DNA of 64,000 nucleotides from Nitrospirota bacterium (GTDB taxonomy: Bacteria; Nitrospirota; UBA9217). Shown here piece after piece: positions 45,358 to 61,975 of this stretch. Below the pieces are notes generated by a model. That model did not search any database. It worked only from the letters and a program-made list of their open reading frames with translations, and was not told the origin of the DNA. A program made the position numbers and the translations under genes. The stretch's first letter is position 1, and every line of letters starts with the position of its first letter. The stretch covers positions 64,001-128,000 of the forward strand of contig CAVTRN010000001.1 in NCBI GenBank assembly GCA_963737155.1, given 5' to 3'.

Positions 45358-45644
45358 CACGATTGAGTGACTGGGCTCGGACTTGCCGTAAAGAGAGAAA
45401 TTACAGGAGCGATTGACGCGACGGCTCATCCTGAGTATTGTGTGCAAGATTCAACGTGTATTTTGCATCCCTTTTTATTCAGCGGCATTGCAAACTTGCG
45501 GGTAGAGCCCGGAGAACCAGGACCGCAAATAAAATAAAAATTCCATTTGCAGTTTTCAGTCAACTGCTCTTCCTGTGCTAAACGACAATCTACGCGGAGA
45601 CGTATCATATCGATCCAGTCAGACATCCTCAGGAGGCGTATTTT

Positions 45645-46658
45645 ATGGCGATAATGAAAGCGGTACAGGTGAGTTCAGCAGGAGGCAAGTTTGAACTAGT
45701 ACGCAAAGAGGTACCCGAACCACAGGAAAACGAAGTCCTCATTAAAGTTGCGGCCTGCGGCATCTGTCACGGGGATTCTGTAACAAAGGAAGGACACTTC
45801 CCCGGGATAGTCTATCCGAGGATCCCGGGACATGAAGTAATCGGCACAATCGAAAAAACGGGCCCGGGAGTCCTGCACTGGAAATCGGGTCAGAGGGCCG
45901 GTGTAGGATGGCGAGCAGGACATTGTAATCAGTGCGCCTCCTGCAAATTAGGTGATTACCGGTCGTGCGAAAATTCTCCGGTCACCGGAATTTCACGGGA
46001 TGGAGGGTACGCGGAATATATGACCTCCCGCGCTGAGGCGTTGGTCAGTATTCCGGAAGAGCTCGATTCGATCAAGGCAGCACCCCTTCTCTGCGCAGGC
46101 AGGACCACCTTCGGCGCATTTAAAGACAGCATTGCGCAGGGTGGCGACCTGGTGGCTGTCCATGGCCTCGGAGGACTGGGACACCTCGCGGTACAATACG
46201 CAGCCAGGCTCGGCTTGAAAACCGCGGTTTTGTCCCGTGGAAAAGACAAGGAAAAGCTTGCATACGATCTTGGGGCCTACGCTTATTTTGATACCACGTC
46301 TACCGATGCTGCAAAGGAACTTGCCAAAATGGGTGGAGCGAAAGTCATCCTCTGTACCGCCCCGAGCAGCAAGGCCATCTCTGATCTGGTGAGCGGTCTC
46401 AGCAGAAACGGTCAACTCATCATTGTTACATTTGCGCCGGAGCCCATGCAGATCTCCCCGGCCCTTCTCCTCCGGGGCGGCCGCTCCATCCGCGGCTACG
46501 TGGGCGGAGACATTGCAGAAGCAGTGCGGTTCAGCTTCCTCTGGAAGATCGTGCCTATGGTCGAAACATTTCCTCTTGAGCAGGCGGAGGCGGCTTATGA
46601 TAAAATGATCTCGTCGAAAGTGCACTTTCGCGCGGTTCTGACAATGGGCAACTCATAA
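45645..46658 (+). CDS. Zn-dependent alcohol dehydrogenase (AdhP-like)
   Basis: CGICHGD, PGHE, structural C-x2-C-x2-C-x7-C, GLGGLG. Confidence 0.93.
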   Translation: MAIMKAVQVSSAGGKFELVRKEVPEPQENEVLIKVAACGICHGDSVTKEGHFPGIVYPRIPGHEVIGTIEKTGPGVLHWKSGQRAGVGWRAGHCNQCASCKLGDYRSCENSPVTGISRDGGYAEYMTSRAEALVSIPEELDSIKAAPLLCAGRTTFGAFKDSIAQGGDLVAVHGLGGLGHLAVQYAARLGLKTAVLSRGKDKEKLAYDLGAYAYFDTTSTDAAKELAKMGGAKVILCTAPSSKAISDLVSGLSRNGQLIIVTFAPEPMQISPALLLRGGRSIRGYVGGDIAEAVRFSFLWKIVPMVETFPLEQAEAAYDKMISSKVHFRAVLTMGNS

Positions 46659-46781
46659 CCGAAGGGAGGAAGCAGCATGCAGAACCTCTTGCACCTACTC
46701 CCTCCATAAAATTGTTTCATTGCCTGATTTAATGTCTTTGGAACAGGAAAGTCATGCCGAGTATCAAGGTGATCTGAATAA

Positions 46782-46894
46782 TGCAGATTCCGGAGGACAG
46801 CTACCAGACGTTCCGATTGAATCTTTCCACCTGATCCCATCCATTCCTTCCACCCCATCCGGTAAATCTACCAGTCATTCCGGCCATCCTTCCA
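46782..46894 (+). repeat. Left end: about five tandem ATTCCG-N-(T/A)CCA motifs
   Basis: e.g. ATTCCGGAGGACAGCTACCA, TTCCGATTGAATCTTTCCA, ATCCGGTAAATCTACCA, ATTCCGGCCATCCTTCCA. Confidence 0.8.
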
Positions 46895-47519
46895 GAGAGA
46901 ATAGCTTCTGTAGGTGATCACGTAATGTTGTTTGTATTGCGCATTTAATCATATAGCTTCAGTTAACAGATTCTTTTTGTAGCTCACGACAGTTGCATCT
47001 TTTAGAAATTACACCATACTTCCTGGAGCAAACAGCGGTTGCTATATTTGGAAATTATAATCTTCATTTGCAATTCTGGAATTTCAAGAAATGGAAACGA
47101 TTATCGACTTCTTTCTGTAGTTGTTGAAGTTGCATTTCTTTGAAACATATCATTTTACATTCTGAATTCGTTGCCGACTCCCCACTAGAACATATCACTT
47201 TCCATGTCGAAATTGCCCATAAAAAAGGGTGGAATATACGAGTAAATATTTCTCATTTCTCAAAATAAGGTTGTCCGATAATTAACACCAGACAAATAAA
47301 TTTGACTGAAACGATGTGTAGTTTGTGAAAATTCCATTGACTGTATATAGCCCTTTTGCCATAATCTGCCCATATTTGTTCGTTCCTCAAATAATATTTA
47401 TACCTGACTATACCTGACGACATGGTTTGCACAAAAGCTCGATCAGAAAAGCAAGCGGCTGGCTCTAAAATCGCATAAGGGCATCTGTATAATCAAAGTA
47501 GTACGGAGGTAACATACAA

Positions 47520-50500
47520 ATGACAATTAAATTATATGCCCCCGTTCTGATTTTCCTATCAGGCATGATTGCTTATTCTTCGATCTACCCTTTCACCATT
47601 GGGCAACACCGGCTACAACGCCACGTCCATCTATTATTTGCTGGTATGTCTCTTGTAATGGCGCTGATTATCCTGTCTACTGTACAGACTTTCCTGGCAC
47701 CGACCATAAACGATTTCATCCAGGCGAACCGCTTAAATCTCGCCCTCTACTTCTTGTTTATGGCCGTACTTCCCTGGTTCTTCGCTGGGTATACCGGCGT
47801 GAGACCAAGGGCAGTGCTGGTCGGACTCACTGGACTGACTGCCGTTTTGTTCCTCGTCAATCTGTTGCAGCCATACACTATCTTGTATAAGGAAATCCAT
47901 GGGCTTGCACACATGACTCTACCCTGGGGAGAGGAACTTATATTTCCGCTGGCTATCGCCAGCATTTGGGCTTACATCGCGGTAACAGCTCACTTCCTTA
48001 ATATCGCCTTTGGGTTTTATACCCTGGTTGTTCGCTTCTACCGTGACCGCAGGCGCACGGCCTTGTTCATGATGCTTGCATTGGGGTTGTTCATGGCTGG
48101 CACCGTAACGGGTATTTTATTCAGACTGGGAATTCCTTACGCCCCCCCCTTGGGGCCGTTCGGATTTCTGAGCATGATTATTGTGATGGGGTTGACGCTG
48201 AATTACGAAATCCAGGAAAATCGCTTGCACATGCAGGCAATACTGGATCATGTTCCCGCACATATCTCTATGAAAGATCCCAAAGGGCAATACATAATGG
48301 TCAACCGCCATTTCGAAGACTTATTCCGTGTCTCCAACGCGAAGATATACGGCAGGACGGATCACGTTTTATACTCTAGTGAGCAGGCCGATGCAATGTA
48401 TGCCGACGAACAGCAGGTGCTCGCCACGCGTCACCCCCTGAAACGTGAGGAAACTGTTACTTTGAAAGGAGAACCTCGCACCTATTTTTCCGTTAAATTC
48501 CCGCTCTTTCATGCCGATGGCACACCTTTTGCCGTATGTGGCATTTCCACAGATATTACCGAACGCAAGATGTCTGAACTGGCCTTAAAACAGAGCGAAG
48601 AAAAATATCGGCGTCTTTACAATGAAACACCCATACTACTCCATTCCATAGACCGGGAAGAACGATTGGTCGATGTAAATGACTACTGGCTGAAAATAAT
48701 GGGCTATGATCGAAATGAAGTTATTGGCAGAAAAATAACAGATTTCTATACGGAGGCATCACGAAAGTACGCCAAAGAGGTCACTATCCCGACATTTTTC
48801 CGGGACGGCTTCGTTCATAATATATTCTATCAGTTTGTAAAAAAAAACGGTGATTTGGTGGATGTGCTTCTTTCGGCGACTGCTGAACGAGATGCCGCGG
48901 GCAACGTTGTCCGTTCCCAGTCTGTGATCGAGGACATCACCGAGCGCAAGCGGGCGGAGGAGTTACTCAAAAAATCAGAAGAGAAGTTTTCTAAGTTCTT
49001 TATGGCAGCACCTGCCGGGATATCTGTCAGTAGCGTCAACGAAGGACGTATTATTGACGTCAATAAGGAATTTGAGCGGTCGTTGGGATATAGCCGAGAT
49101 GAGATAATTGGTCGTACGTCATTCGAACTCGGGCTCTGGGTTGATAGCAAAGATCGGGATCAAATCGTGCGGCTTTTACGTACCGAAGGGAAGGTGAAAG
49201 ACCTAGAGCTGCGGCTTCGTACAAAAAACGGCAATGTATTAACGCATCGATATTTTGCAGATCTAATAGAAATAGATAATGTAACCTACCTCCTGTCCGC
49301 ATTTATTGATATAACCGAACAAAAGAAAGCAGAAGAGGCGCTGCGAGAAAGTGAACGGAAGTATCGTGAACTCGTTGAGAATGCAAACAGTATAATCCTT
49401 CGTTGGGGAAGGGACGGGAAAATCACATTCATGAATGAGTTTGGCCTGAATTATTTCGGCTTTTCCGAAAAAGAAATTATTGGGCATCATTGGCTTGACA
49501 CTATTGTCCCGGCAACAGAAAGCACAGGAAGGGACTTGAATACATTGATAGAGCAAATTCGCGTCAACCCAAAGGCCTTTGAGCAAAATATTAATGAGAA
49601 CATACGGCGAAACGGTGAGCGGGTATGGATTTCCTGGACAAACAAGCCAGTGCTTGATCAGCAGGGGCGTTTAGTGGAAGTTTTCAGCATTGGATCAGAT
49701 ATCACCAAGCGCAAACTGGCTGAAGAGGCACTACGAGAAAGCGATATGAAGTTTCGCGCAGTATTCGAAAACTCCAGAGACGCCATCGGTATTGCAAAAA
49801 AGGGAATGCATTTTTTTGCTAATCCTGCATATTTGAGATTATTTGGGTACGAGAGCAATGAAGAAATCGTTGGCACTTCGATACTTGAGAACATTGCAAC
49901 GAGCCATCGTCAACAGGTAATAGAGAACATACAAAGAAGAACTGCTGGAGAACCGATCCCACCACTCTACGTAGCACGCGGCAGGAAGACAGATGGTACT
50001 GAATTTTTCATGGAGATCAGCGCTTCAACCTTTGAGTTGCAAGGCGAGATCTATACAGTAGCGAACATCCGAGACATCACCGAACAACTTCGTGCGGTGG
50101 AAGAGAAGGCTATGCTGGAGAACCAACTCCGCCAAGCCCAGAAAATGGAAGCGATTGGCCAGGTGGCTGGCGGCATTGCTCATGATTTCAATAACTTACT
50201 CACCATTTTTGGTACCTATGGGAGCATTCTGAGTAGAAAATTAAAGAACGATGATGTGCTCCGAACCTATGCCGAGCGTATAATGGAAGCAACGGAAAAA
50301 GCCGCCGGCCTGACCCAAAGTCTTCTCGCCTTCAGCAGGAAACAGACTATAACCCTCAAACCAGTCGATCTGAATAAGATTATTAGAAAAGTAGAGCACT
50401 TTCTGTACAGAATAATCGGTGAAGACATCGAGTTGAGAACATCTCTCGCCGGTACGGAATTAGCAGTCATGGCGGACCCCGGCCAGATAGAACAAGTCTT

Positions 50501-51269
50501 GATGAACCTTGCCACGAACGCGCGCGATGCAATGCCTCAGGGAGGACTGCTAACCATCCATTCAGAAACTATGCAACTCGCCGATGCTGACGTAAAGGCC
50601 GGCGACGTTGAGAAAGCCGGCATATATGCCCGTATCAGTGTTGCGGATACCGGACAGGGCATGGACAAAGCAACTGTAGAGAAAATATTCGAACCTTTTT
50701 TCACAACGAAGGAAGTGGGCAAAGGGACTGGCCTCGGTCTCGCGATAGTTTATGGTATTATCAAGCAGCACAGCGGAACCATCAGAGTTTACAGCGAGCC
50801 AGGCAAAGGAACGATTTTTAAGATTTACCTGCCCCTAACGCAATCAGCAATCGCCAAGTCTGGGAGGGATGCTCTCCCGGGCCCCCGGGGCGGGCATGAA
50901 ACGATACTTTTAGTTGAAGACAATACGGCAGTGAGAGCATCAATTAAAGTCATCCTTGAAGACGGCGGTTATAAAGTTATCGAGGCAGTCGATGGAGACG
51001 ATGCCATTGCTGAATTTTATCGACATCGAGACGAAATTATGCTTTTACTGACCGATGTGATAATGCCGAAAAAGAACGGCAAGGAAGTGTACGAAGCGAT
51101 CAAAAGTATAAGGCCGGACATTAAGGCGCTTTTCATAAGCGGTTATACGGCTGATATAATTAACTCAAAGGGACTGTTGGATGAAGGATTGCAGCTTATG
51201 CACAAGCCGCCCGCACCCGATGCCCTTCAACGTAAGATACGGGAAATATTGGATAACAGAGAGGAATAA
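47520..51269 (+). CDS. Hybrid sensor kinase: multi-TM N-terminus, five PAS, HisKA/HATPase, REC
   Basis: Five PAS/PAC units ending [41 protein letters not shown]. Confidence 0.95.
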
Positions 51270-51270
51270 T

Positions 51271-52641
51271 ATGGTAAAAATACTTGTAATCGACGACGAT
51301 AAAATGGAAAGAATTGCATTCAGCGATGCTCTTGCCGACGGGGGCTTTTCACCTGCAACGGCATTCAACTGGAGAGAGGCGCTCGAACTTATCAGGCGGG
51401 AAGACTACGATGCCGTATTAATAGACCTCGTGATGCCTGAGAAAAACGGCATAAATACGATGCTGGAACTGAAAAAGATAAAACCGGCCCTTCCTATGAT
51501 CATTGTAACCGGGCACGGCGATATCGCGACAGCGGTAGAGGCCATCAAGCTTGGAGCTTATGATTACGTAACGAAGCCTCCTGATTATCAGCGATTGTTC
51601 CTGACAATTCAGAAGGCTATTGAGCATTGTGACGCCCTTCAGAAAATCAACGCCCTGAACACAGCTGTTGAGGTATCCTTTGAAGGATTCCATGGCACTG
51701 AAAAAGTCATGAAGGACATTATCAACAAAATTTCGAAAGTCGCACAAAGTGATTTTTCCGTGATTATCGAAGGCGAGACAGGAACAGGCAAGACTACGAT
51801 CGCCCGTGCTATTCACCGCCTGAGTAAAAGGGCGGGCGGACCCTTTCTCGTCGTTGACATGGGAACGCTTCCCGAGACCCTTGTCGAGCGTGAACTTTTT
51901 GGCCATGAGAAAGGCGCATTCACCGGCGCGGATAAGCGAAAACGGGGCTATTTCGAGGCGGCACAGGGGGGAACGATCCTTATCGATGAGCTGCAGAATA
52001 TGAGTACCTATACACAGGCTAAATTGCTGAGGGTCGTTGAAGAGAAAAAAATATATGCTCTTGGCAGCACAGTGCCTCTGGATGTCGATGTGCGAATCAT
52101 ATGCGCTTCCAATGCTGACTTGAAAAAAGAAATTTTGGAAAAGCGTTTTCGGGAGGACCTGTATTACCGGCTGAACGAATTCACCATCACGCTACCGCCC
52201 CTGAGGGAAAGACCGGATGATATTCTGTTTCTCACGAGAAAATTTATGGAGGAAGCCTGCGCCGAACTCAACAAGACAGGTTGCGAGCTTTCAATAGACG
52301 CTGCCGCTGTCCTGAAGAATTACCGCTGGCCCGGCAATGTGCGTGAGCTGAAAAATGTTATACGCCGAACAGTCCTATTGGCCTGCGAAGATGTCATACA
52401 GCCCGAGGAGATTCAGTTCATGTTCACCGACAAGGAGGAGGACAGAAAACTGATGTCCGCGCAAATGCCGCTCAGGGAACTTACGACCATTGCCGTTCGG
52501 GAAGTTGAACGAAAAGTGATTAAAAAAGCTCTTGACGCCACAGGAGGAAATAAGAGCAAGGCCGCAGCAATGCTGCAGATCGATTATAAGACTCTTCTAA
52601 CCAAAATTAAGGAGTACGGTATACAATACTCCAGTGATTGA
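51271..52641 (+). CDS. Sigma54-dependent NtrC-family response regulator
   Basis: [42 protein letters not shown], Fis HTH. Confidence 0.95.
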
Positions 52642-52720
52642 TATTCTTGATATTTTCTGACGTTGGCTGTTTACCTTCCCTGTAAATAAATCATATTCTC
52701 CCTTGTCTCACTCCCTCTTG

Positions 52721-52900
52721 GTATGGTACAGATTCCATACACTTGATTAGTCGCGGAAAATCAATGCATTACCTCGTTTATCCCACGCACAAAGGCTTTT
52801 TCCCTCAGCGAATGATATGGTCTGCATTCCCTATCCAAAATTTCTACTAATTAAAATTCCTTTGTATTTCGGCTAGTTTGGGATTGGCATGGTTGTTGAA
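52721..52900 (+). promoter_or_regulatory. Candidate enhancer palindromes plus sigma54-like promoter for the cheY-MCP-cheW genes
   Basis: GTATGG-N8-CCATAC (52721-52740), GATATGG-N8-CCCTATC (52814-52835), TGGCATGGTTGTTGAA (52885-52900; -12 reads GA rather than GC). Confidence 0.5.
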
Positions 52901-52951
52901 ATGTATTGTACTGACATCAGGCAATTGTGCTGATCAAAGAAGGCGTGAGTC

Positions 52952-53317
52952 GTGAAAAAAACAATATTATGCATTTGTGATTCAGCATCCATGAGACTGT
53001 TGCTTGCACATGCCCTGCGGGATGAAAGATATAACATTATAACTGCCCCTGATGGCAATAAAGCACTAGCTCGGGTCGAAACTACGCAGGTTGACCTGGT
53101 TCTAACAGACTTCATCCAGCCGGGGACAGATGGAGTAGAGTTTACGAGAAAATTTCGTGCGAAGCAAAGATATAAGTTCACGCCCGTCCTGATCATGACC
53201 ACGGAATCACAGGACAGCAGCAAGGATGAGGGGGAAAAGGCTGGCGTGTCAGGTTGGATCGCAAAGCCTTTTACGGCAGAAAAACTGAAAACAATCGTAA
53301 AACAGTTTGTATGTTAA
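52952..53317 (+). CDS. cheY: CheY-like single-domain response regulator
   Basis: DSASMR..LTDFIQPGTDG..YKFTPVLIMTTES..GVSGWIAKPF. Confidence 0.8.
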   Translation: MKKTILCICDSASMRLLLAHALRDERYNIITAPDGNKALARVETTQVDLVLTDFIQPGTDGVEFTRKFRAKQRYKFTPVLIMTTESQDSSKDEGEKAGVSGWIAKPFTAEKLKTIVKQFVC

Positions 53318-53415
53318 CTCGGACATGTGCACGGGAAATATCTTTTCAGGCTCATAGTTGTCAGCAAGGCGGCAGAAGCGTATCGGGGCCTTTCGATGAT
53401 GTCAGAGCATAACCC

Positions 53416-53829
53416 ATGCGGAGGACGTTGACTATGACAAATTCAGAAACAGGAGTCAAGACAAAACGCATGCTTGTTGTTGATTCTGCTGCCGCCATAT
53501 TATTTGCCTATAGGATACAGCTCGAAAGGCAGGGAGTAATGATTGATGCATGTGAAACCTATGAAGAAGCAGTAGAGCTGCTGAAAATGCACCGCTACGA
53601 TGTCGCGCTTCTAGATGTCAGTCAGACAGGAGTTCGGCAAAAAAATGGTCTCAATCTGACATCTATTCTCCGAGAACGGCAACCAGATGTGAAAATTATT
53701 CTTATGACTGGTGTCAATGATGATGCCAAGAAAAAAGCAGAGGAACTGGGGTTCTCATACTGTTTTGAGAAGCCCGTATTGAGTTCGACGATATTCTGGG
53801 CACTGAGAAAGTTGGAAATAACTAAATAA
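53416..53829 (+). CDS. Single-domain response regulator (degenerate acidic pocket)
   Basis: MLVVDSA..ALLDV..IILMTG..FEKP; start may be 53434. Confidence 0.8.
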   Translation: MRRTLTMTNSETGVKTKRMLVVDSAAAILFAYRIQLERQGVMIDACETYEEAVELLKMHRYDVALLDVSQTGVRQKNGLNLTSILRERQPDVKIILMTGVNDDAKKKAEELGFSYCFEKPVLSSTIFWALRKLEITK

Positions 53830-53848
53830 AGGATAAGGAAAAACTATT

Positions 53849-55552
53849 ATGAAAGAGTTATTCAAGAACATGAAGATCGGAAGAAAACTGGCCGTATTGG
53901 TGGGACTCATGTCACTACTGCTCGTGGCTACGGGAATCTATTTGCTCCATGGGATTTCCGAGACCAACAAGCGGTTGAATACAAACATGGCCATGGCCGA
54001 GGCATACACAAAGGCGGCGGGAGACGCCGACGACGCCGAAATAGCGTTCAAGAAGCAAGTGCAGGAGTGGAAAGACATGCTCCTGAGGGGCAACGATCCT
54101 AAACTGTTCTCCAAATACCATGATAATTTCCTGAAAACGGAAGCCGAGGTGCAGTCTCGGGGGAAGGATCTGAAGGTTTCTCTTGCAAAGCTCAACGTCG
54201 ACACGGCAAGGCTGGACGATTTTTTAAAAGCCCATACTCTCCTGGGAGAGAAATACCACGAGGCCCTGAAGAACTATCGGTCAGACAATATAAGGAGCTT
54301 CAGTATCGTGGACGTTATGGTAAGGGGAATCGACCGGGAGCCGACGGAAATCATCGATTCTGTCGCCGAAAAAACGCGGAAGCAGGAATCAGAGATGTTC
54401 GCAGAAGTGGCGAGAAAATCCGCTGAGTCTTATAACTCCGTTTTCAGAAACTCCCTCATTTTCATGGTGTTCGGGATCGGGCTGGGTATTTTCCTCTCCC
54501 TGGTGATCATTCAAGCCATCACGAGACCGCTTAACGATATCGTTATTGTGGCAAACAAGACGAGTCAGGGGGACCTGTCTCATGACGATACGGCCCACGC
54601 GATCCCTACTAATGACGAAATCGGTGAGATGACAGTAAGCTTCAATCGGATGATTGAAAAACTACGCCATATTGTGGGCGAGATCAACTCGGGCACGAAT
54701 ACCTTGGCTTCTAGCTCCGAGGAACTTTCGGCCACATCAGAAGATCTAAACAAAGGGACGCAGGAACTTTCCACCCAGACATCTCAAGTTGTTACAGCTA
54801 TGACCGAGGTTTCCCAGACCATCATGGACATGGCCAAAAACGCATCGAATGCAGCAGATGCAAGCAGAAACGCCTCGGAAACAGCATCCAAAGGGAAGCA
54901 GATTGTTGATACCACGGCAGATGACATGATAAGGATTGCGCAGACCGTACAAAGCGCAGCAGGTACCATAGAAGAACTGGGGAGAAGTTCCGCTCAGATC
55001 GGGGAAATAGTGACCGTTATTAACGGCATCGCCGAACAAACAAACCTTCTCGCCTTGAATGCTGCCATCGAGGCCGCCCGAGCAGGTGAGCAGGGCCGCG
55101 GTTTCGCCGTAGTGGCCGACGAAGTGAGAAAACTTGCGGAGCGGACTGGCCAGGCTACCAAAGACATTACCCACAGGATTACAACGATTCAGCAGTCCGC
55201 AGCAGATTCCGTGAAGGCGATGAAGAAGGGGAGTGATGAGGTGGATAAGGGAGTTGCTCTGGCGAAGGAAGCGAGCGCGTCGCTTGAGGTAATCGTACAG
55301 GCATCGAATAATGCCATGGACATGGTTCAGCGGATTGCTGCCGCCACCGAGCAGCAATCATCTGCATCGGAAGAAGTTACACAAAGCATGGAGGGCATCG
55401 CAGGCATTGCGAACAGTACGTCAACATCCACAGAACAGATTAAGGGTGCAGCTGCGGACCTCGCACGCCTGGCAACCGAATTAAAGGAAACCGCTGCCTG
55501 GTTTCGTTTAAATGGCAATCAGCCTCCGTACATGAACCGGCGAAGCCAGTAG
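53849..55552 (+). CDS. Methyl-accepting chemotaxis protein (2 TM, HAMP)
   Basis: [38 protein letters not shown]. Confidence 0.96.
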
Positions 55553-55669
55553 AGAAACGACGACTTGAGCTGAAAAAACTTCCTGGATGATGCCAACGCG
55601 ATGATAGCGGCTTCAGATACATGAAATAATCTGTGGAAACTGATGAACAGGGATAGAGAAGGAGATCAT

Positions 55670-56152
55670 ATGCAGACAGCCGCATTACACGCAGATACAC
55701 TCCAGCTTGTCAGTTTCAGGCTCGGAACGCAGAGATACGCAGTAGATATCCTAAGGGTTCAGGAAATCGATAATATGAAAGAGATCACCTGTATCCCGAA
55801 TGCGCTGCCTTATCTCGCCGGAGCGATCAATCTCCGGGGCAAAGTGATTCCCGTGCTTAGTTTGAGAACAAAGTTCGCCATGGAAAAAAACGGCGACAAC
55901 GAAAAGGAAAAAATCGTCATTATCGATATTAAGGGCACGGTAATGGGGATCATAGTGGACTCAGTTTCGGATGTATTACGAATCCCCTCGGATGTGATAG
56001 AGCCGCCGCCGCAGGTATCATCACGTTTGAACTCGGGATTAATCCGTGGGATCGCGAAGCTGCAGGAGGGGTTGGTCCTCATACTGGATATGGACAAGCT
56101 GCTGGACTCTGATGAACACGATGCCATTATTAATGTGGAACAGCTTGCATAG
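55670..56152 (+). CDS. cheW: Chemotaxis coupling protein CheW
   Basis: LVSFRLG..VQEI..GAINLRGKVIPV..GIIVDSVSDV. Confidence 0.95.
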   Translation: MQTAALHADTLQLVSFRLGTQRYAVDILRVQEIDNMKEITCIPNALPYLAGAINLRGKVIPVLSLRTKFAMEKNGDNEKEKIVIIDIKGTVMGIIVDSVSDVLRIPSDVIEPPPQVSSRLNSGLIRGIAKLQEGLVLILDMDKLLDSDEHDAIINVEQLA

Positions 56153-56429
56153 GAAAGGAGCATTCAGTGTTCTAACGGTTGCTGAACATCCGCTGAATGA
56201 TTCAGGGTTGGAAGGCCCCCTGGCGTATAACTTTTGTTGGAAAGAAAGGGTGTATCGCAGCTGATGTTATTTAATACAAACGTAAAATATTTTGTATCAG
56301 TCAAAACAGTGAAGTTATTGATTTTATAGTGTTACTTTTGCAACATTGTCACAATATTCTGTGCGTTTATATTAGTAGCAATACTACCATTTATTCTATC
56401 AATTTTACATGTTTGCATTGGGGACGGAT

Positions 56430-56786
56430 ATGAACAAGCAAACAGTACTCGTTATTGATGATGATGTAAATACCAGAGAATGCCTAAGCATACTACTGGA
56501 AGGTGACGGTTTTGAGGTTACAGGCTGCGAAAACGGCGTTGTCGCCCTTGAGTTGATTAAAGAAAACTGCTTTGAAACGATAATCATTGATTATCATATG
56601 CCCCAAATTAAAGGCGATGAGGTTGTAAAGCGATTACGGGTGCAGTGCTCTCAAGCTTACATAATCGGGATCAGCGTGGAGGACAAGCGCCGGGTTTTTA
56701 TGGATGCTGGCGCAAATACATTTGTAGCCAAAAGCGACATCATTCATGCATTAGCGTCGTTGATAAAAAACAAAAAGGGTTTATAG
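56430..56786 (+). CDS. Single-domain response regulator
   Basis: LVIDDD..IIDYHMPQIKG..FVAK. Confidence 0.85.
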   Translation: MNKQTVLVIDDDVNTRECLSILLEGDGFEVTGCENGVVALELIKENCFETIIIDYHMPQIKGDEVVKRLRVQCSQAYIIGISVEDKRRVFMDAGANTFVAKSDIIHALASLIKNKKGL

Positions 56787-56872
56787 CAATATAATCAAAC
56801 AACACTATTGAACTCAAGATTTTACTGCAAACCCGACAACGACGATGAAAGGTCTGACACTGACTCACAACT

Positions 56873-59800
56873 ATGAAAATCTTCAGGATGACCATAGATT
56901 CCAAAAAGACCATCGTTTCAATTGCGCTGGGGCTAGCAGGCACTGCGGGGAGCCTCCTCTCTTTCAACTTTGCATTCCCACCCCACAGGGTTACGATAGT
57001 CTGGGGTCTTTTTCTGCCGATGCTTGCGGCTCTGGCGTATGGATGGCGCCATGCTCTCATAGCGGTAACATTGGGCGGTGCCGGCTTTATTTCGTTTATT
57101 CTCTGGCCTACGAGCGGGTGGGCAAATGTAGTGACTGTCGTTCTTTATGTGGGGTGGTATCTCTGGCAGGGCTATTGTGCTGACCTAAGGCGCAGAAAAA
57201 CAGCATGGTGGAATAACATTTACGGCGCTCAGGCACTGTACGCAGTTTTTTATAATGTTCTGCTGTTTGGAACTTTTCCTTGGATATTCCGGTTCAATCC
57301 TCCCTTCTGGTATCCGGCTGCAGCAACCTCTATGCCGTACGAGATCATTGCTGGCATTGCAGTAAAAGAAACCTTCATGATGTTTCTCAGCGTTTATGCG
57401 AGCGACCTGCTCCTGCATCTGCCCGCGATCCGCCGGATCGTAGGTCTCCCTGTCTCCTCATCAATGCGTATTTATTCAAAGATCCTCCTCTCGACGGTCC
57501 TGATCAGCTTTACGGTCATGGTATTCTTTTCCGCTCTAGAAGGATTTCTTTTCGAACATGATTTTGCAAAAGCCCTGACGCAACTTGCTGTTGACGATAT
57601 TAAACGACTCGTGATTCTAATCGTTCTTCTCAGTACGGCCGCTGGATTACAGTTGGCAAAGTCTATGGAAAAACGCATTGATGCTGAAGATGCTTTGCGT
57701 GCCAGCGAAGAACGGTTCTTCACAATCTTCAATTCTGTCAATGATGCTATTTTTATCCATGATGCAGACACCGGAGTTATCCTGGATGTGAATAAAAAAA
57801 TGTGCGAAATGTTCGGCTATTCACGCAAGGAAGCATTGATGGCTGATATCGGCAAACTCAGTTCCGGCATTTCACCATATACTCTGGAAGACGCCGTTAC
57901 CAAAGTGAGGAGGGCGGCGTCCGGAGAGCCACAGCTAGTCGAATGGCACTGCAAACATAAGGATGGACGACTCTTCTGGGGAGAGATCAATATGAAGCGC
58001 GCCTCAATCGGAGGAACGGATCGTGTGCTGGTAACGGTGCGTGATGTTACGGAGCGCAAACTGGCCGCAGAGAAACTGCAGGAGAGTGAGCGCCGCTACC
58101 GCACGCTTTTTGAGTCGGCAAATGACGCCATCCTTCTGATGCGATATGACCGCTTTGTCGCTTGCAACACGAAAGCGCTTGATATGTTCGGATGCACCCG
58201 CGGACAGATACTCGGGAAGGCTCCCTATAGCTTCTCTCCTCCCACCCAGCCCGATTTAAAAGGCTCCATGGAGAAGGCCATCGAGAAAATGAACACTGTG
58301 TTGCTGGGACATCCCCAGATTTTTGAATGGGTCTATAACAAAAGAGACGGAACGCCTTTTACCGCCGAAGTTAGCTTGAACAGTGTTGAACTGGGCACGA
58401 GGACATTTATCCAGGCCATTGTGCGCGATATTACCGAACGCAAGCGTGTCGAACAGGCACTAATGCGCGAGAAAGTGTTTTCCAATGTTGTTATCGACAG
58501 CCTGCCCGGAGTGTTTTATATCTGCGATGAGGAAGGGAAACTTCTCCGTTGGAACAATAACGAAAAAGAAACAACCGGATATTCCATCGCGGAACTCTCA
58601 GAAATGAACGTGCTGAAGCTGTTCCACAAAGATCGGCAACTTGTCGCGACCAAAATGCACGAGGTGCTGGATTCCGGACGCTCCTCTTTGGAGGCATCGC
58701 TTATTACAAAAAGCGGGACGCCCATCCCGTTCTACTTGACAGGGTGCCGTATGGTCCTGGATGGGAAACGATATGTAGTCGGAATCGGCATCGATATATC
58801 GGAGCGCAAAAAGCTCGAAGGTCAGCTTCATCAAGCGCAGAAATTGGAGGCTATCGGTGCGTTGGCAGGAGGCATCGCCCATGACTTCAATAATATCCTG
58901 TCGGCTATAATAGGATATGCCTCAATTCTTCAAATGAAAATGAAGCCGCATGACGCTTTACGTCATCATGTCGAGCAATCCTCGCTTCTTCAGAACGGGC
59001 GGCGGGATTAACAAAGAGCTTGCTCGCATTCACCAGAAAGCAGCCGATAGAGTTAAAGCCCGTTAATATCAATGAAATGATATGCGGATTTCAAAAGATC
59101 TTGACTAGGCTAATTGGCGAGGATATTGATTTCAGGGTGAATACCGCTCTTGGCGATCTCGTGGTGGAATCGGACAAAGGCCAACTTGAGCAGGTGCTGA
59201 TGAATCTCGTCATGAACTCTAGAGACGCCATGCCCCTTGGCGGCAAACTGATTGTAACTACGGATAGAGTGGCCATAACCGATAATCATGGCGAAATACC
59301 CCGCGGGTCGTATGCGGTTATAACAGTGACGGATACCGGCTGCGGTATGGATAAGATCATTCAGGAGCATATTTTCGAACCCTTCTTCACGACGAAAGAG
59401 GTAGGAAAAGGAACCGGTCTGGGTTTGGCAATCGTCTATGGTGTTATTAAGAAACATAATGGTTTTATCCACGTTTACAGCGAGCCGGGAATGGGAACGA
59501 CATTCAAAATCTACCTTCCTCGCATATCCCGAATCGAGCAGGCAGAAAGCTCGCAACAGCAGGCTCCTTTACTGCACGGAACGGAAACAATCCTTCTGAT
59601 AGAAGATGATTCAACCGTGAGGAATGTTACGAAGGATATTCTTAAGGAGTTTGGTTATACAGTTTTGGAAGCGGTTAATGGAGAGAATGCGGTAAAGGTT
59701 TTTCGCGAAAATCAAGAACGAGTGCAGATTGTCCTCTGCGACCTAATCATGCCAAAAATGAACGGGCAGAAGACCTATGAGGAATTGTTAAAAATCTGCC

Positions 59801-59946
59801 CCGGCCTCAAGGTAATCTTTATGAGCGGTTATACAGCGGATATCATCAATCAGAAAGGAATCTTGGGTCAAGGGACAAATTTCATTTCAAAACCGATGAG
59901 TTTGACCGACTTATTAAACAAAGTGAGAACAGTTCTGGATTCGTAA
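56873..59946 (+). pseudogene. Hybrid sensor kinase (multi-TM, three PAS, HisKA/HATPase, REC), frameshifted at ~58977 (or sequencing error)
   Basis: ORFs 56873..59011 and 59020..59946 join as ..HVEQ-ILASSERAAGLTKSLLAF if one A is added to GAGCAATC. Confidence 0.85.
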
Positions 59947-60296
59947 ATGAGCTTTATGTCAGAGAAATCATGGATACGCATCGCGCTCCCAATCGACATC
60001 CCCAGTTCTCAGGAAAATATATATACACGCAAGATACACCAAGGATTCTTTGCCCTTGTCACAATATTGACATGACACATTTGTAGATAAAACCTACAAT
60101 TTCAGAAAGAAGTAACTCTCGCGAACTTCAGGATGAAGTTGATGATTGTTTTCACTTTTTGAAATTACGAGATCGTAGGTTGAAGTGTTGGACTCTATCC
60201 GATTATTATATACTCATCTATGGGTTGAAACATGCAACACCACAATATGATTTTCTTGCCTAAATATTATTTGCGCGATAAATTTACCTAATTCAC

Positions 60297-60460
60297 TGGT
60301 AGGAAAGAACCGAAATTGGTGGATGATTTCAATCGGAATCAACATCTGGTAAAAATGAATCGGAATGATTGGAAGGAATCATTTGTAGCGTGTGGTAGAT
60401 TTACTGGATTGACCGGAAGGAATCACCCGGAATAAGTGGAAGGATTCATCGGAATGTGCA
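60297..60460 (-). repeat. Right end: about seven tandem ATTCCG-N-(T/A)CCA motifs, inverted relative to the left end
   Basis: Reverse complement TGCAC ATTCCGATGAATCCTTCCA..ATCCAGTAAATCTACCA (16/17 with 46857-46873)..ATTCCGATTGAAATCATCCA. Confidence 0.82.
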
Positions 60461-60490
60461 AATAAACAGCGATTCAGCACAGATATGGAT

Positions 60491-60949
60491 TTATTCCTCG
60501 TCTTTCAGCTGATCTTTCAGTGCCCGATCAAAAGTGATAATCCTGCCGCCGTGCTTCTTTTGAAAGGTCGCGGCCAGCGTTTTGGAGGAAAATGCAACCC
60601 TGCTGGTGTAGCTCATCACGCCGGGAATATCGCTCCCTTCGAGAAAGTATGCCTTGTCTGCATCGAGCAATTTCCCGGTCAGAAAATCAGCCACTTTTAC
60701 TCCTTTGATTCTGCCCTCGTTCTGATTGATGAGCCTGGCCGCGCAGGCCAGGCTGCAAGTCGATTTTGTCGTATCGTCATTGAAGAGAATTACAAGGCGA
60801 GTTTTTCCATACAGGTCCAGATACATGCCGCAGACGGCACAACTCTCCCTTTCAGTCGCGTGCGCACTGGCATAGATTCCGGTTACAAAAAAAGCTGTAA
60901 TAATCAGGGATGCTGTCTTTCGGATGATAGCGTTCAAATGTTTTCCCAC
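60491..60949 (-). CDS. NosL-like periplasmic metal-binding protein (copy 3)
   Basis: Signal peptide, CAVCGM, CSLAC, DADKAYFLEGSD..GVM, AF..A..FQKKHGG. Confidence 0.82.
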   Translation of the reverse strand: MGKHLNAIIRKTASLIITAFFVTGIYASAHATERESCAVCGMYLDLYGKTRLVILFNDDTTKSTCSLACAARLINQNEGRIKGVKVADFLTGKLLDADKAYFLEGSDIPGVMSYTSRVAFSSKTLAATFQKKHGGRIITFDRALKDQLKDEE

Positions 60950-60970
60950 ACGCTCCTGGTACCCATATTT

Positions 60971-61438
60971 CTACATCGTCCCCATTGGTTGCTCCATGCC
61001 TTCCGGATCCTTTGCCCTTCTCTTGAGTGCGGCCTCATAACTAAAGATTGTTCCACCAAAACCCTTCTTGAACATCTCGGCCTGTTTCTTCGACTTGAAA
61101 GCGATCCAGCTCGGAGCACAGGAAGGCACTGCCTTGCTCTTGTACAGATACACCGCCTTCTCAGCGCCCATCCACTCTCCGGTTATGAAGTCCCTTGTTT
61201 TCGCCGACTGAACCTTGCCCATATCAGTAGCCAGGACCCAGAGCCCGCAGTGCGCGCAACAATAGTGGACCTCCTCTCCCGTCTTCATGGTAACGACAAA
61301 TGCGGTATTCTGATGCTCGGAAATCGACATCCCGCAGGTCGGGCATTTATCCTGCGCTGTCTGCGCTGTCACTGCTACTGCGGAAACAAGGACGAGCAAC
61401 ACTGCGAGTGCAAGCACAACTGTTTTAACGTTTTTCAT
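60971..61438 (-). CDS. NosL-like periplasmic metal-binding protein (copy 2)
   Basis: CPTCGM, CCAHC, AEKAVY, AFKSKKQAEMFKKGFGG; RBS AAGGAGG. Confidence 0.82.
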   Translation of the reverse strand: MKNVKTVVLALAVLLVLVSAVAVTAQTAQDKCPTCGMSISEHQNTAFVVTMKTGEEVHYCCAHCGLWVLATDMGKVQSAKTRDFITGEWMGAEKAVYLYKSKAVPSCAPSWIAFKSKKQAEMFKKGFGGTIFSYEAALKRRAKDPEGMEQPMGTM

Positions 61439-61507
61439 GAACCCTCCTTTTAGATTAAGACAGCATCCCTGACTGACTAAGCATATCACAATTTCAGCAA
61501 AAGCGTT

Positions 61508-61975
61508 TTAACGGGCTTCTTTGGCCAGATCTTCCCGCGCAGCAGCAAGGGCTTCGTCCCAGGAAACGATTTTTCCGCCATAAGATGCAATAAATTTGTC
61601 GGCGGCATTCTTTGATGCGAAGGCCCACTTGGCGCGTATTGTCATCACGCCGGCTTTTTTACCGCCCAAAACCCAGACCGCCTTTTCAGTGTCGATGAGC
61701 GTACGAGTATTGCGGTCGGCAACGAGAAGAGCCTTCACTTTGCGTCCTTGATGCGCATTAATTTCGATGAGTGCGCAGTGGAGGCTGCAGACCCCGACCT
61801 CCGACCCATCCTCGTACTGGATCAGCATTCTGCTGAATCCATAGGCTTTTCTGTCCATGCCGCAGTTGGCACAATTGCGGTTAACCTCGATGTCGGACTG
61901 GGCCAATACGGACATTCCGGTAATACCAAACAGGATCACGATAAGGAGGGTTGATGCAGCATGTTTTAGCTTCAT
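61508..61975 (-). CDS. NosL-like periplasmic metal-binding protein (copy 1)
   Basis: CANCGMDR, CSLHC, KAVWVLGG..GVM, AF..A..F...YGG. Confidence 0.82.
   Translation of the reverse strand: MKLKHAASTLLIVILFGITGMSVLAQSDIEVNRNCANCGMDRKAYGFSRMLIQYEDGSEVGVCSLHCALIEINAHQGRKVKALLVADRNTRTLIDTEKAVWVLGGKKAGVMTIRAKWAFASKNAADKFIASYGGKIVSWDEALAAAREDLAKEAR

Follow-up and report, generated by a model that had tools for sequence, protein, structure and literature searches.

The DNA analysed here is a 64-kb window, positions 64001-128000 of contig C1, from the genome of a Nitrospirota bacterium (assembly GCA_963737155.1, G000 in our comparisons), which comprises 4.84 Mb in two contigs, C1 and C2; coordinates refer to the window unless a contig is named. 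Between the genes adh and nosL, the window carries a mobile element, which we call E1, with sensory and regulatory genes between two ends built like those of insertion sequences (IS) of the IS21 family. We consider it likely that E1 is a non-autonomous derivative of this family, moved as a unit by IstA and IstB supplied in trans. The evidence for this comes from the target duplication around E1, from a second element with the same ends elsewhere in the genome (E2), and from the likeness of these ends to the termini of real IS21 elements.

E1 proper extends from 46782 to 60460, measures 13,679 bp and reads TGCAG...GTGCA. Direct reading gives TGCAGATTCCG as the left tip and CGGAATGTGCA as the right tip; the latter reads TGCACATTCCG on the reverse strand and agrees with the left tip in inverted orientation at 10 of 11 positions. 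The termini are imperfect inverted repeats of the form 5′-TG...CA-3′, as in the IS21 family, and AATAA stands directly outside both of them (46777-46781 on the left, 60461-60465 on the right), an exact 5-bp target-site duplication. The original prediction, which was made from the sequence alone, had described inverted termini with an exact AATAA on both sides, and this our reading bears out. Its limits of 46777 and 60465 delineate a real element but include both duplications.

Behind each tip lies an array of direct repeats. A unit consists of an ATTCCG-like block, 6-10 variable bp and a TWCCA(S) block, and the units are inverted between the two ends. The left terminal inverted repeat (46782-46895, plus strand) comprises the tip TGCAG and five units (46787-46807, 46810-46830, 46834-46853, 46857-46874 and 46877-46895, the fourth being identified by eye), which start 6, 29, 53, 76 and 96 positions from the tip. 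Its counterpart on the right (60296-60460, minus strand) comprises the tip TGCAC and seven units (60455-60436, 60433-60413, 60409-60392, a degenerate one at approximately 60391-60369, 60366-60346, 60339-60319 and 60316-60296), with starts at 6, 28, 52, approximately 70, 95, 122 and 145. The spacing of the starts is 20-27 bp, mostly 22-24 bp and thus about 23 bp, as in the direct repeats of IS21. About five repeats on the left and seven on the right had been predicted, which agrees with our count, and the predicted match of 16 out of 17 positions between one left and one right unit was reproduced by BLAST (94.1% over 17 positions).

These arrays are not due to chance. The strict unit TTCCG-N7-10-TWCCA occurs six times in the window, where 1.32 occurrences are expected and none of 100 shuffles reached six, and the two ends of E1 account for five of the six, on opposite strands. 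Clusters of at least four relaxed units within 140 bp are found, in the whole genome, only at the left and right ends of E1 and at the left end of E2. Promoter- and terminator-like sites in the end regions of E1 showed no excess over shuffles, and an Rfam search of 46600-60600 gave no match. Clusters of short direct repeats beside a cargo that encodes DNA-binding regulators might also be operator or enhancer sites for one of these, for instance the NtrC-type activator, with the flanking 5-mers agreeing by coincidence. We regard this as extremely improbable: the same arrays bound E2, which has different regulators and a 5-bp duplication of its own, and they start exactly at the TG and CA tips, are inverted, and resemble IS21 termini in other genomes.

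The proposal to search the genome with the ends for other cassettes led to E2. BLAST with the ends of E1 returned one further pair, on C2, whose left and right members are 94% and 96% identical to those of E1. E2 occupies C2:1916281-1963618 (47,338 bp; loci L001-L003) and is flanked by an exact 5-bp duplication of its own, ATATG. What the two elements share is confined to approximately 180 bp on the left (46782-46961, plus strand) and approximately 300 bp on the right (60161-60460, minus strand), each with 93% identity; between these segments there is similarity at the level of domains alone, and there are no internal copies of the ends. The inner 135 bp of the right shared segment (60161-60295) are not part of the repeats and are 78% conserved in G012, a genome of the same genus. 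On the left, the shared segment of E1 is followed by an AT-rich non-coding leader (46962-47519, plus strand) that is absent from E2, and the left non-coding part as a whole (46782-47519) has a G+C content of 38%.

The cargo of E2 includes a set of chemotaxis genes that encode CheA, two CheW, three CheR-type, two CheB-type and four methyl-accepting chemotaxis protein (MCP)-type proteins as well as CheD. Its other regulators are several hybrid kinases, an NtrC-type activator and REC proteins, and it further carries two IS110 copies, an IS630-type fragment, a multihaem cytochrome and a sulfur-transporter pair. No IS21-type transposase domain was found in the 28 E2 open reading frames (ORFs) scanned, and tblastn with the IstA and IstB of this genome detected no remnant of either. 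Since E2 combines the ends of E1 with unrelated cargo, at least two different cargoes have travelled with the same pair of ends.

The paired duplications around E1 and E2 are the strongest evidence that both are transposed units; the chance of two exact 5-bp pairs around the same ends is in the order of 10^-6. They also bear on the possibility that E1 is ordinary chromosomal cargo caught between the leftovers of two IS21 insertions, or a composite transposon that has been gutted, and would then never have moved as a unit devoid of a transposase. Part of the cargo does have chromosomal homologs without such ends in the genus (G010:C223, G001 and G011), and decayed single left ends exist in this genome at C2:37376-37500 (nhmmer E = 7.9e-18) and C1:974909-974976 (E = 2.6e-4), for neither of which a partner was found. 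However, two independent insertions would leave a duplication each, whereas in E1 and again in E2 a single left-type array is paired with a single right-type array of opposite orientation, and one exact 5-bp duplication spans the unit. In addition, neither element contains internal end copies or IstA/IstB remnants, such that we hold this explanation to be very unlikely.

With regard to the family to which the ends belong, real IS21 elements are available for comparison in this genome and in its relatives. An inventory of transposition domains in the genome yielded six rve-type hits, one IstB, one Mu-transpos_C_2 and one Mu-transpos_C, which resolve to one IS21, one Tn7-like set and other IS types. 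The resident IS21 (C1, approximately 815470-818105; L005 7471-10105) encodes an IstA of 527 amino acids (aa) with rve and Mu-transpos_C_2 domains and an IstB of 303 aa (IstB_IS21). Its tip, TGGGT, is followed by ATTCCG at positions 6-11, the same offset as in the cassette ends. Its units, five on the left and three on the right, are of the form ATTCCG-N8-CGACCC with a period of 23 bp, and its duplication, GGATGA, measures 6 bp. It is immediately preceded by an aldo/keto reductase gene fragment of 110 aa.

In the same bacterial family, IstA homologs gave 26 matches, distributed over 13 of 64 genomes, and the upstream DNA was inspected for 16 of these matches. Eleven of the 16 loci display TG-N3-ATTC(C/T/G)G and three to five units, with second blocks that differ by lineage (CGACCC, CAGGCAC, CGGCCAC or CGCCCAC). 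Among the remaining five, two have a variant first block, two are cut by contig ends, and one, whose IstA homolog has 29% identity, has unrelated repeats. The cassette ends are like these IS21 relatives in tip offset, first block and period, while their second block, TWCCAS, occurs in no autonomous element that was inspected. An nhmmer profile built solely from cassette-type left ends (those of E1 and E2, the relic at C2:37376 and one from a Nitrospirota metagenome-assembled genome, MAG) and searched against 359 kb of DNA from relatives matched IS21 termini at L048 (E = 1.4e-5), L045 (8e-4), L044 (0.012), L046 (0.02) and L054 (0.027 and 0.042); the end of the resident IS21 was matched weakly (E = 0.08-1.1).

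Published work on the family describes IS21 ends as having two or more direct repeats, each made up of two conserved GC-rich blocks approximately 10 variable bp apart (PMC10122671), with the repeats spaced 23 bp, a reactive end CA, and a requirement of IstA for two complete repeats (PMC10122671, PMC11208146). Duplications of 5 bp are reported for IS5376 and numerous other IS21 members (PMC10122671, PMC11208146), and in IS5376 the second block is contacted by the HTH-1 domain (PMC10122671). As far as sequence can tell, E1 shows every published IS21 end feature that was compared, IS5376 being like it in the TG...CA tips, the two-block direct repeats at approximately 23 bp and the 5-bp duplication. 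The earlier reading of the ends as IS21-type is therefore supported by E2, by the IS21 ends of the same bacterial family, by the profile matches and by the published end features. The cassettes differ from the autonomous relatives, which measure approximately 2.6 kb, in their length of 13.7 and 47 kb, and in lacking istA and istB; E1 has five plus seven units where the published description has 'usually at least two'.

Because E1 and E2 contain no IstA or IstB domains, they are classed as non-autonomous derivatives rather than as IS elements. Mobile insertion cassettes (MICs) have been named as one kind of non-autonomous element (PMC3281130). Such cassettes rely for their movement on a transposase provided in trans. 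E1 and E2 resemble them in having IS-type ends, passenger genes, no transposase and a target duplication, and differ from them in that a cognate autonomous IS does not reside alongside: none with the cassette ends is present in the genome. MIC231 of Bacillus cereus, for example, has IS4-family ends, is served by a single transposase, is a few kb long and occurs beside its cognate IS231, whereas the present cassettes have IS21-type ends and cargo of up to 47 kb. In its working principle E1 is a mobile insertion cassette, and by its ends it is derived from IS21.

Several points weigh against a movement of E1 by IS21 proteins in trans, the first being that TG...CA tips, several subterminal sites and a 5-bp duplication also fit Mu, Tn7 and Tn402-type elements. 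E1 might have been moved by a system from a different family that pairs a DDE transposase with an AAA+ protein (Tn7-like, Mu-like or Tn402/Tn5053-like), for instance the Tn7-like element that resides in C1. Tn7, Mu and Tn5053 regularly generate 5-bp duplications, as against 6-7 bp in the IS21 relatives of the same bacterial family. The resident Tn7-like set (C1:1469884-1474796; L007 7885-12797) encodes TnsA, a TnsB-like protein with Mu-transpos_C, TniB and TniQ and is followed by HNH and Mrr-type nuclease genes. Furthermore, left ends of the cassette type in metagenomes precede cargo and not a transposase, as is the case at a Tn7-like left end.

However, the Tn7-like end that adjoins tnsA, the one end of one element that was inspected, starts with TGTCACAAAC, is AT-rich and has no ATTCCG units, and the cassette tip is TGC, not TGT. 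In half-site, tip offset and period (23 bp) the cassette units agree with the ends of real IS21 elements, which the profile matches, and both cassettes are fully delimited without transposition genes at either end. Duplications of 5 bp are also known from IS5376 and numerous IS21 members (PMC10122671, PMC11208146). A cryo-EM paper on IS21 stresses its likeness to Tn7-like and Mu-type transposons (PMC10122671), and the points in common with these are the 5-bp duplication, several transposase-binding repeats per end, and a DDE transposase with an AAA+ regulator. We thus consider a mover from one of these other families unlikely.

Further points against the IS21 interpretation concern the helper. 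No cognate IstA/IstB was found in the genome, where IstA, IstB and a Tn7-like set occur once each. The resident IS21 has CGACCC as its second half-site and not TWCCAS, and the duplications of autonomous relatives measure 7 bp in eight copies and 6 bp in three, with none of 5 bp (11 readable copies besides the resident one; six further copies were unreadable and one on a short contig was ignored). With its different second block and the 6-7 bp duplications of its kind, the resident IS21 is unlikely to be the helper. Judging from these sequence differences, the helper probably came from another IstA lineage that is now absent from this genome, in which the cassettes are probably immobile at present and may be stranded. 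E2 may even be inert and no longer a substrate, as 4 bp of the second block have been deleted from its left terminal unit. In G014, a genome of the same genus, nine full-length copies of two IS21 relatives were seen (L043, L053, L057 and L060-L065), with IstA 83-84% identical to the resident one and mostly 7-bp duplications, which amounts to an active burst.

The search for an autonomous element with the cassette ends was extended to larger collections, and none was found in scans of public genomes, metagenomes, viral contigs and plasmids or in 400 other genomes from the phylum, which likewise speaks against our interpretation; the prediction had suggested looking for a cognate istA/istB element, and none turned up. 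A tip-pattern scan of one genome each from 185,579 species returned 93 stretches, and a related left end was present only in a Nitrospirota MAG (L073), whose genome contains no IstA homolog beyond a weak N-terminal match and no partner end with the strict tip within 40 kb. In the sample of 400 further genomes of the phylum, six contain a two-unit pattern; they lack arrays, and their matches are thus attributed to chance. The plasmid collection gave no match, and the 16 stretches from viral contigs included none that is related.

The metagenome scan gave six loci, none with an IstA within the available contig DNA. Cargo follows the left end in these loci, and two of them (L173 and L174) look like chance matches. 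In L170 and L171, a three-unit left end is followed by defence-type genes (DUF1684, GmrSD_N and HEPN), and in L169 and L172 left ends with the same tip precede genes for a Ser/Thr kinase and a TPR protein, respectively. There are hints, then, that IS21-ended elements in which the transposase is distal or missing are more widespread.

The insertion sites of the two elements add to the points on the opposing side. E1 sits in a harmless place, between the stop codons of the convergent genes adh (46658) and nosL (60491); to its right, on the minus strand of the window at 60491-61975, three tandem NosL-family genes are followed by an AhpC/TSA-type gene. An empty site for E1 was not found, and the adh-nosL neighbourhood is kept in none of the same-genus relatives. 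Among 14 genomes of the genus, the left flank matches only G001 and a fragment in G003, the right flank none; the adh ortholog of G001, the only one in the genus (81% aa identity), lies among different genes. We also compared 45600-61600 with contigs from four soil-metagenome runs of two studies, one possibly the source sample. The occupied junction is bridged on the left by X1 record 4 and X2 record 10 and on the right by X2 record 15 and X3 record 24. The joints listed include none across E1 and no end-to-end joint of a circle, an absence that contigs cannot demonstrate; those that are listed have sides of at most 27 letters and lie between repeated kinase domains.

For E2, the genomes G005, G012, G006 and G014 have an intact hsdM-like gene for a type I methyltransferase across the site. 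In G000 this gene is broken into C2:1915965-1916011 and C2:1963637-1964243, with approximately 146 bp missing; in their place, other repeat DNA (approximately 290 bp) flanks E2 on either side. In view of this loss and the extra repeat DNA, the E2 junction is not clean, and no empty site was found for E2 either. A repeat of approximately 150 bp with four units of 27-30 bp, ending in GTGCA, was observed at C2:1916103-1916255 and C2:1964451-1964604, that is, 25 bp to the left of E2 and again 0.83 kb to its right, and at three more places on the short contig G001:C10 of the same genus. It resembles the end array of yet another mobile element, and the 19 nucleotides between this repeat and ATATG look like a left and a right tip joined together.

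Turning to what E1 carries, Pfam assigns sensory or regulatory functions to all eight cargo genes, as had been predicted, and all domain-bearing ORFs of at least 80 aa run from left to right. The first (47520-51269, plus strand, as are all that follow) encodes a hybrid histidine kinase of 1249 aa with several PAS domains, HisKA, HATPase_c and REC. It is followed by an NtrC-type response regulator with REC, a sigma-54 interaction AAA+ domain and HTH_8 (51181-52641, 486 aa), two single-domain REC proteins (52952-53317, 121 aa; 53416-53829, 137 aa), an MCP with HAMP and MCPsignal (53849-55552, 567 aa), CheW (55643-56152, 169 aa) and a third single-domain REC protein (56409-56786, 125 aa). The last gene, for a second PAS hybrid kinase (56873-59946), is frameshifted near 59000 and split into two ORFs, one with PAS and part of HisKA (56873-59011) and one with HATPase_c and REC (59020-59946). 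The frameshift lies inside HisKA, at 58990-59020 of the window, and seems to be missing from the homolog in G010:C223; it could stem from decay of the cargo or from an error in sequencing. There is no CheA among the genes of E1, and the MCP and CheW would hence need a kinase encoded elsewhere.

The absence of a transposase and of an ATPase gene from E1, which the original prediction had stated as well, was confirmed at the level of domains: Pfam detected no transposase, integrase or IstB-like ATPase domain in its nine ORFs, and tblastn with the IstA and IstB of the genome gave nothing below E = 0.8 inside E1. The G+C content of E1 is 46.3%, as compared to 49.4% for the genome, and that of both non-coding end regions is 38%. 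The best paralogs of its proteins are mostly located outside E2, with the exception of one REC protein and the C-terminus of a kinase. The MCP, CheW and the second kinase are colinear in G010:C223, with 59-83% aa identity over the matched segments and without such ends, and mosaic homologs of the first kinase are present in G001 and G011. The presence of these chromosomal homologs without ends in the genus indicates that the cargo of E1 belongs to the genus's own gene stock.

Taken as a non-autonomous IS21 derivative, E1 would have arisen by the replacement of istA and istB with 12.4 kb of sensory genes between the left and right IS21-type arrays. With IS5376 as the model, IstA protomers would use their HTH domains to bind the units, which are spaced 23 bp, and would synapse the ends; IstA would then cleave at the terminal CA and join the ends to positions 5 bp apart in the target. 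In this way, a DDE transposase of the IstA type together with the IstB ATPase, which we infer to have acted in trans, would have inserted E1 as one unit into the intergenic space between adh and nosL, and repair of the staggered 5-bp cut would have generated the AATAA duplication. The mechanism itself is not new. What is unusual is the size of 13.7 and 47 kb, the five plus seven units, and the occurrence of two unrelated sensory cargoes in one pair of ends. In the literature library that was searched, no large transposase-free cargo element with IS21 ends was found to be described.

Gene callers register only kinases, receptors and regulators in such DNA, and islands of 13.7 and 47 kb would consequently pass as native chromosome, despite the traces of transposition that both carry. 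E1 and E2 might, as a speculative possibility that we consider doubtful for now, represent a family of IS21-derived sensory cassettes, in which fixed arrays, 93% conserved between copies, hold interchangeable and very large signalling cargo, ranging from a two-component and MCP-CheW module (13.7 kb) to a whole chemotaxis system (47 kb), that IstA and IstB acting in trans would move between Nitrospirota genomes. If this were true, they would be among the largest transposase-free DDE transposons, and one cargo would have been swapped for another while the ends stayed the same, as opposed to a single capture. IS21-type ends can enclose cargo 5-18 times as large as the parent IS, and among it a complete chemotaxis system. 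Should a helper IstA/IstB be found, the cassettes would provide a natural test of the length of DNA that an IS21 transpososome can move, and a simple way, open to testing, in which whole sensory circuits could spread horizontally.

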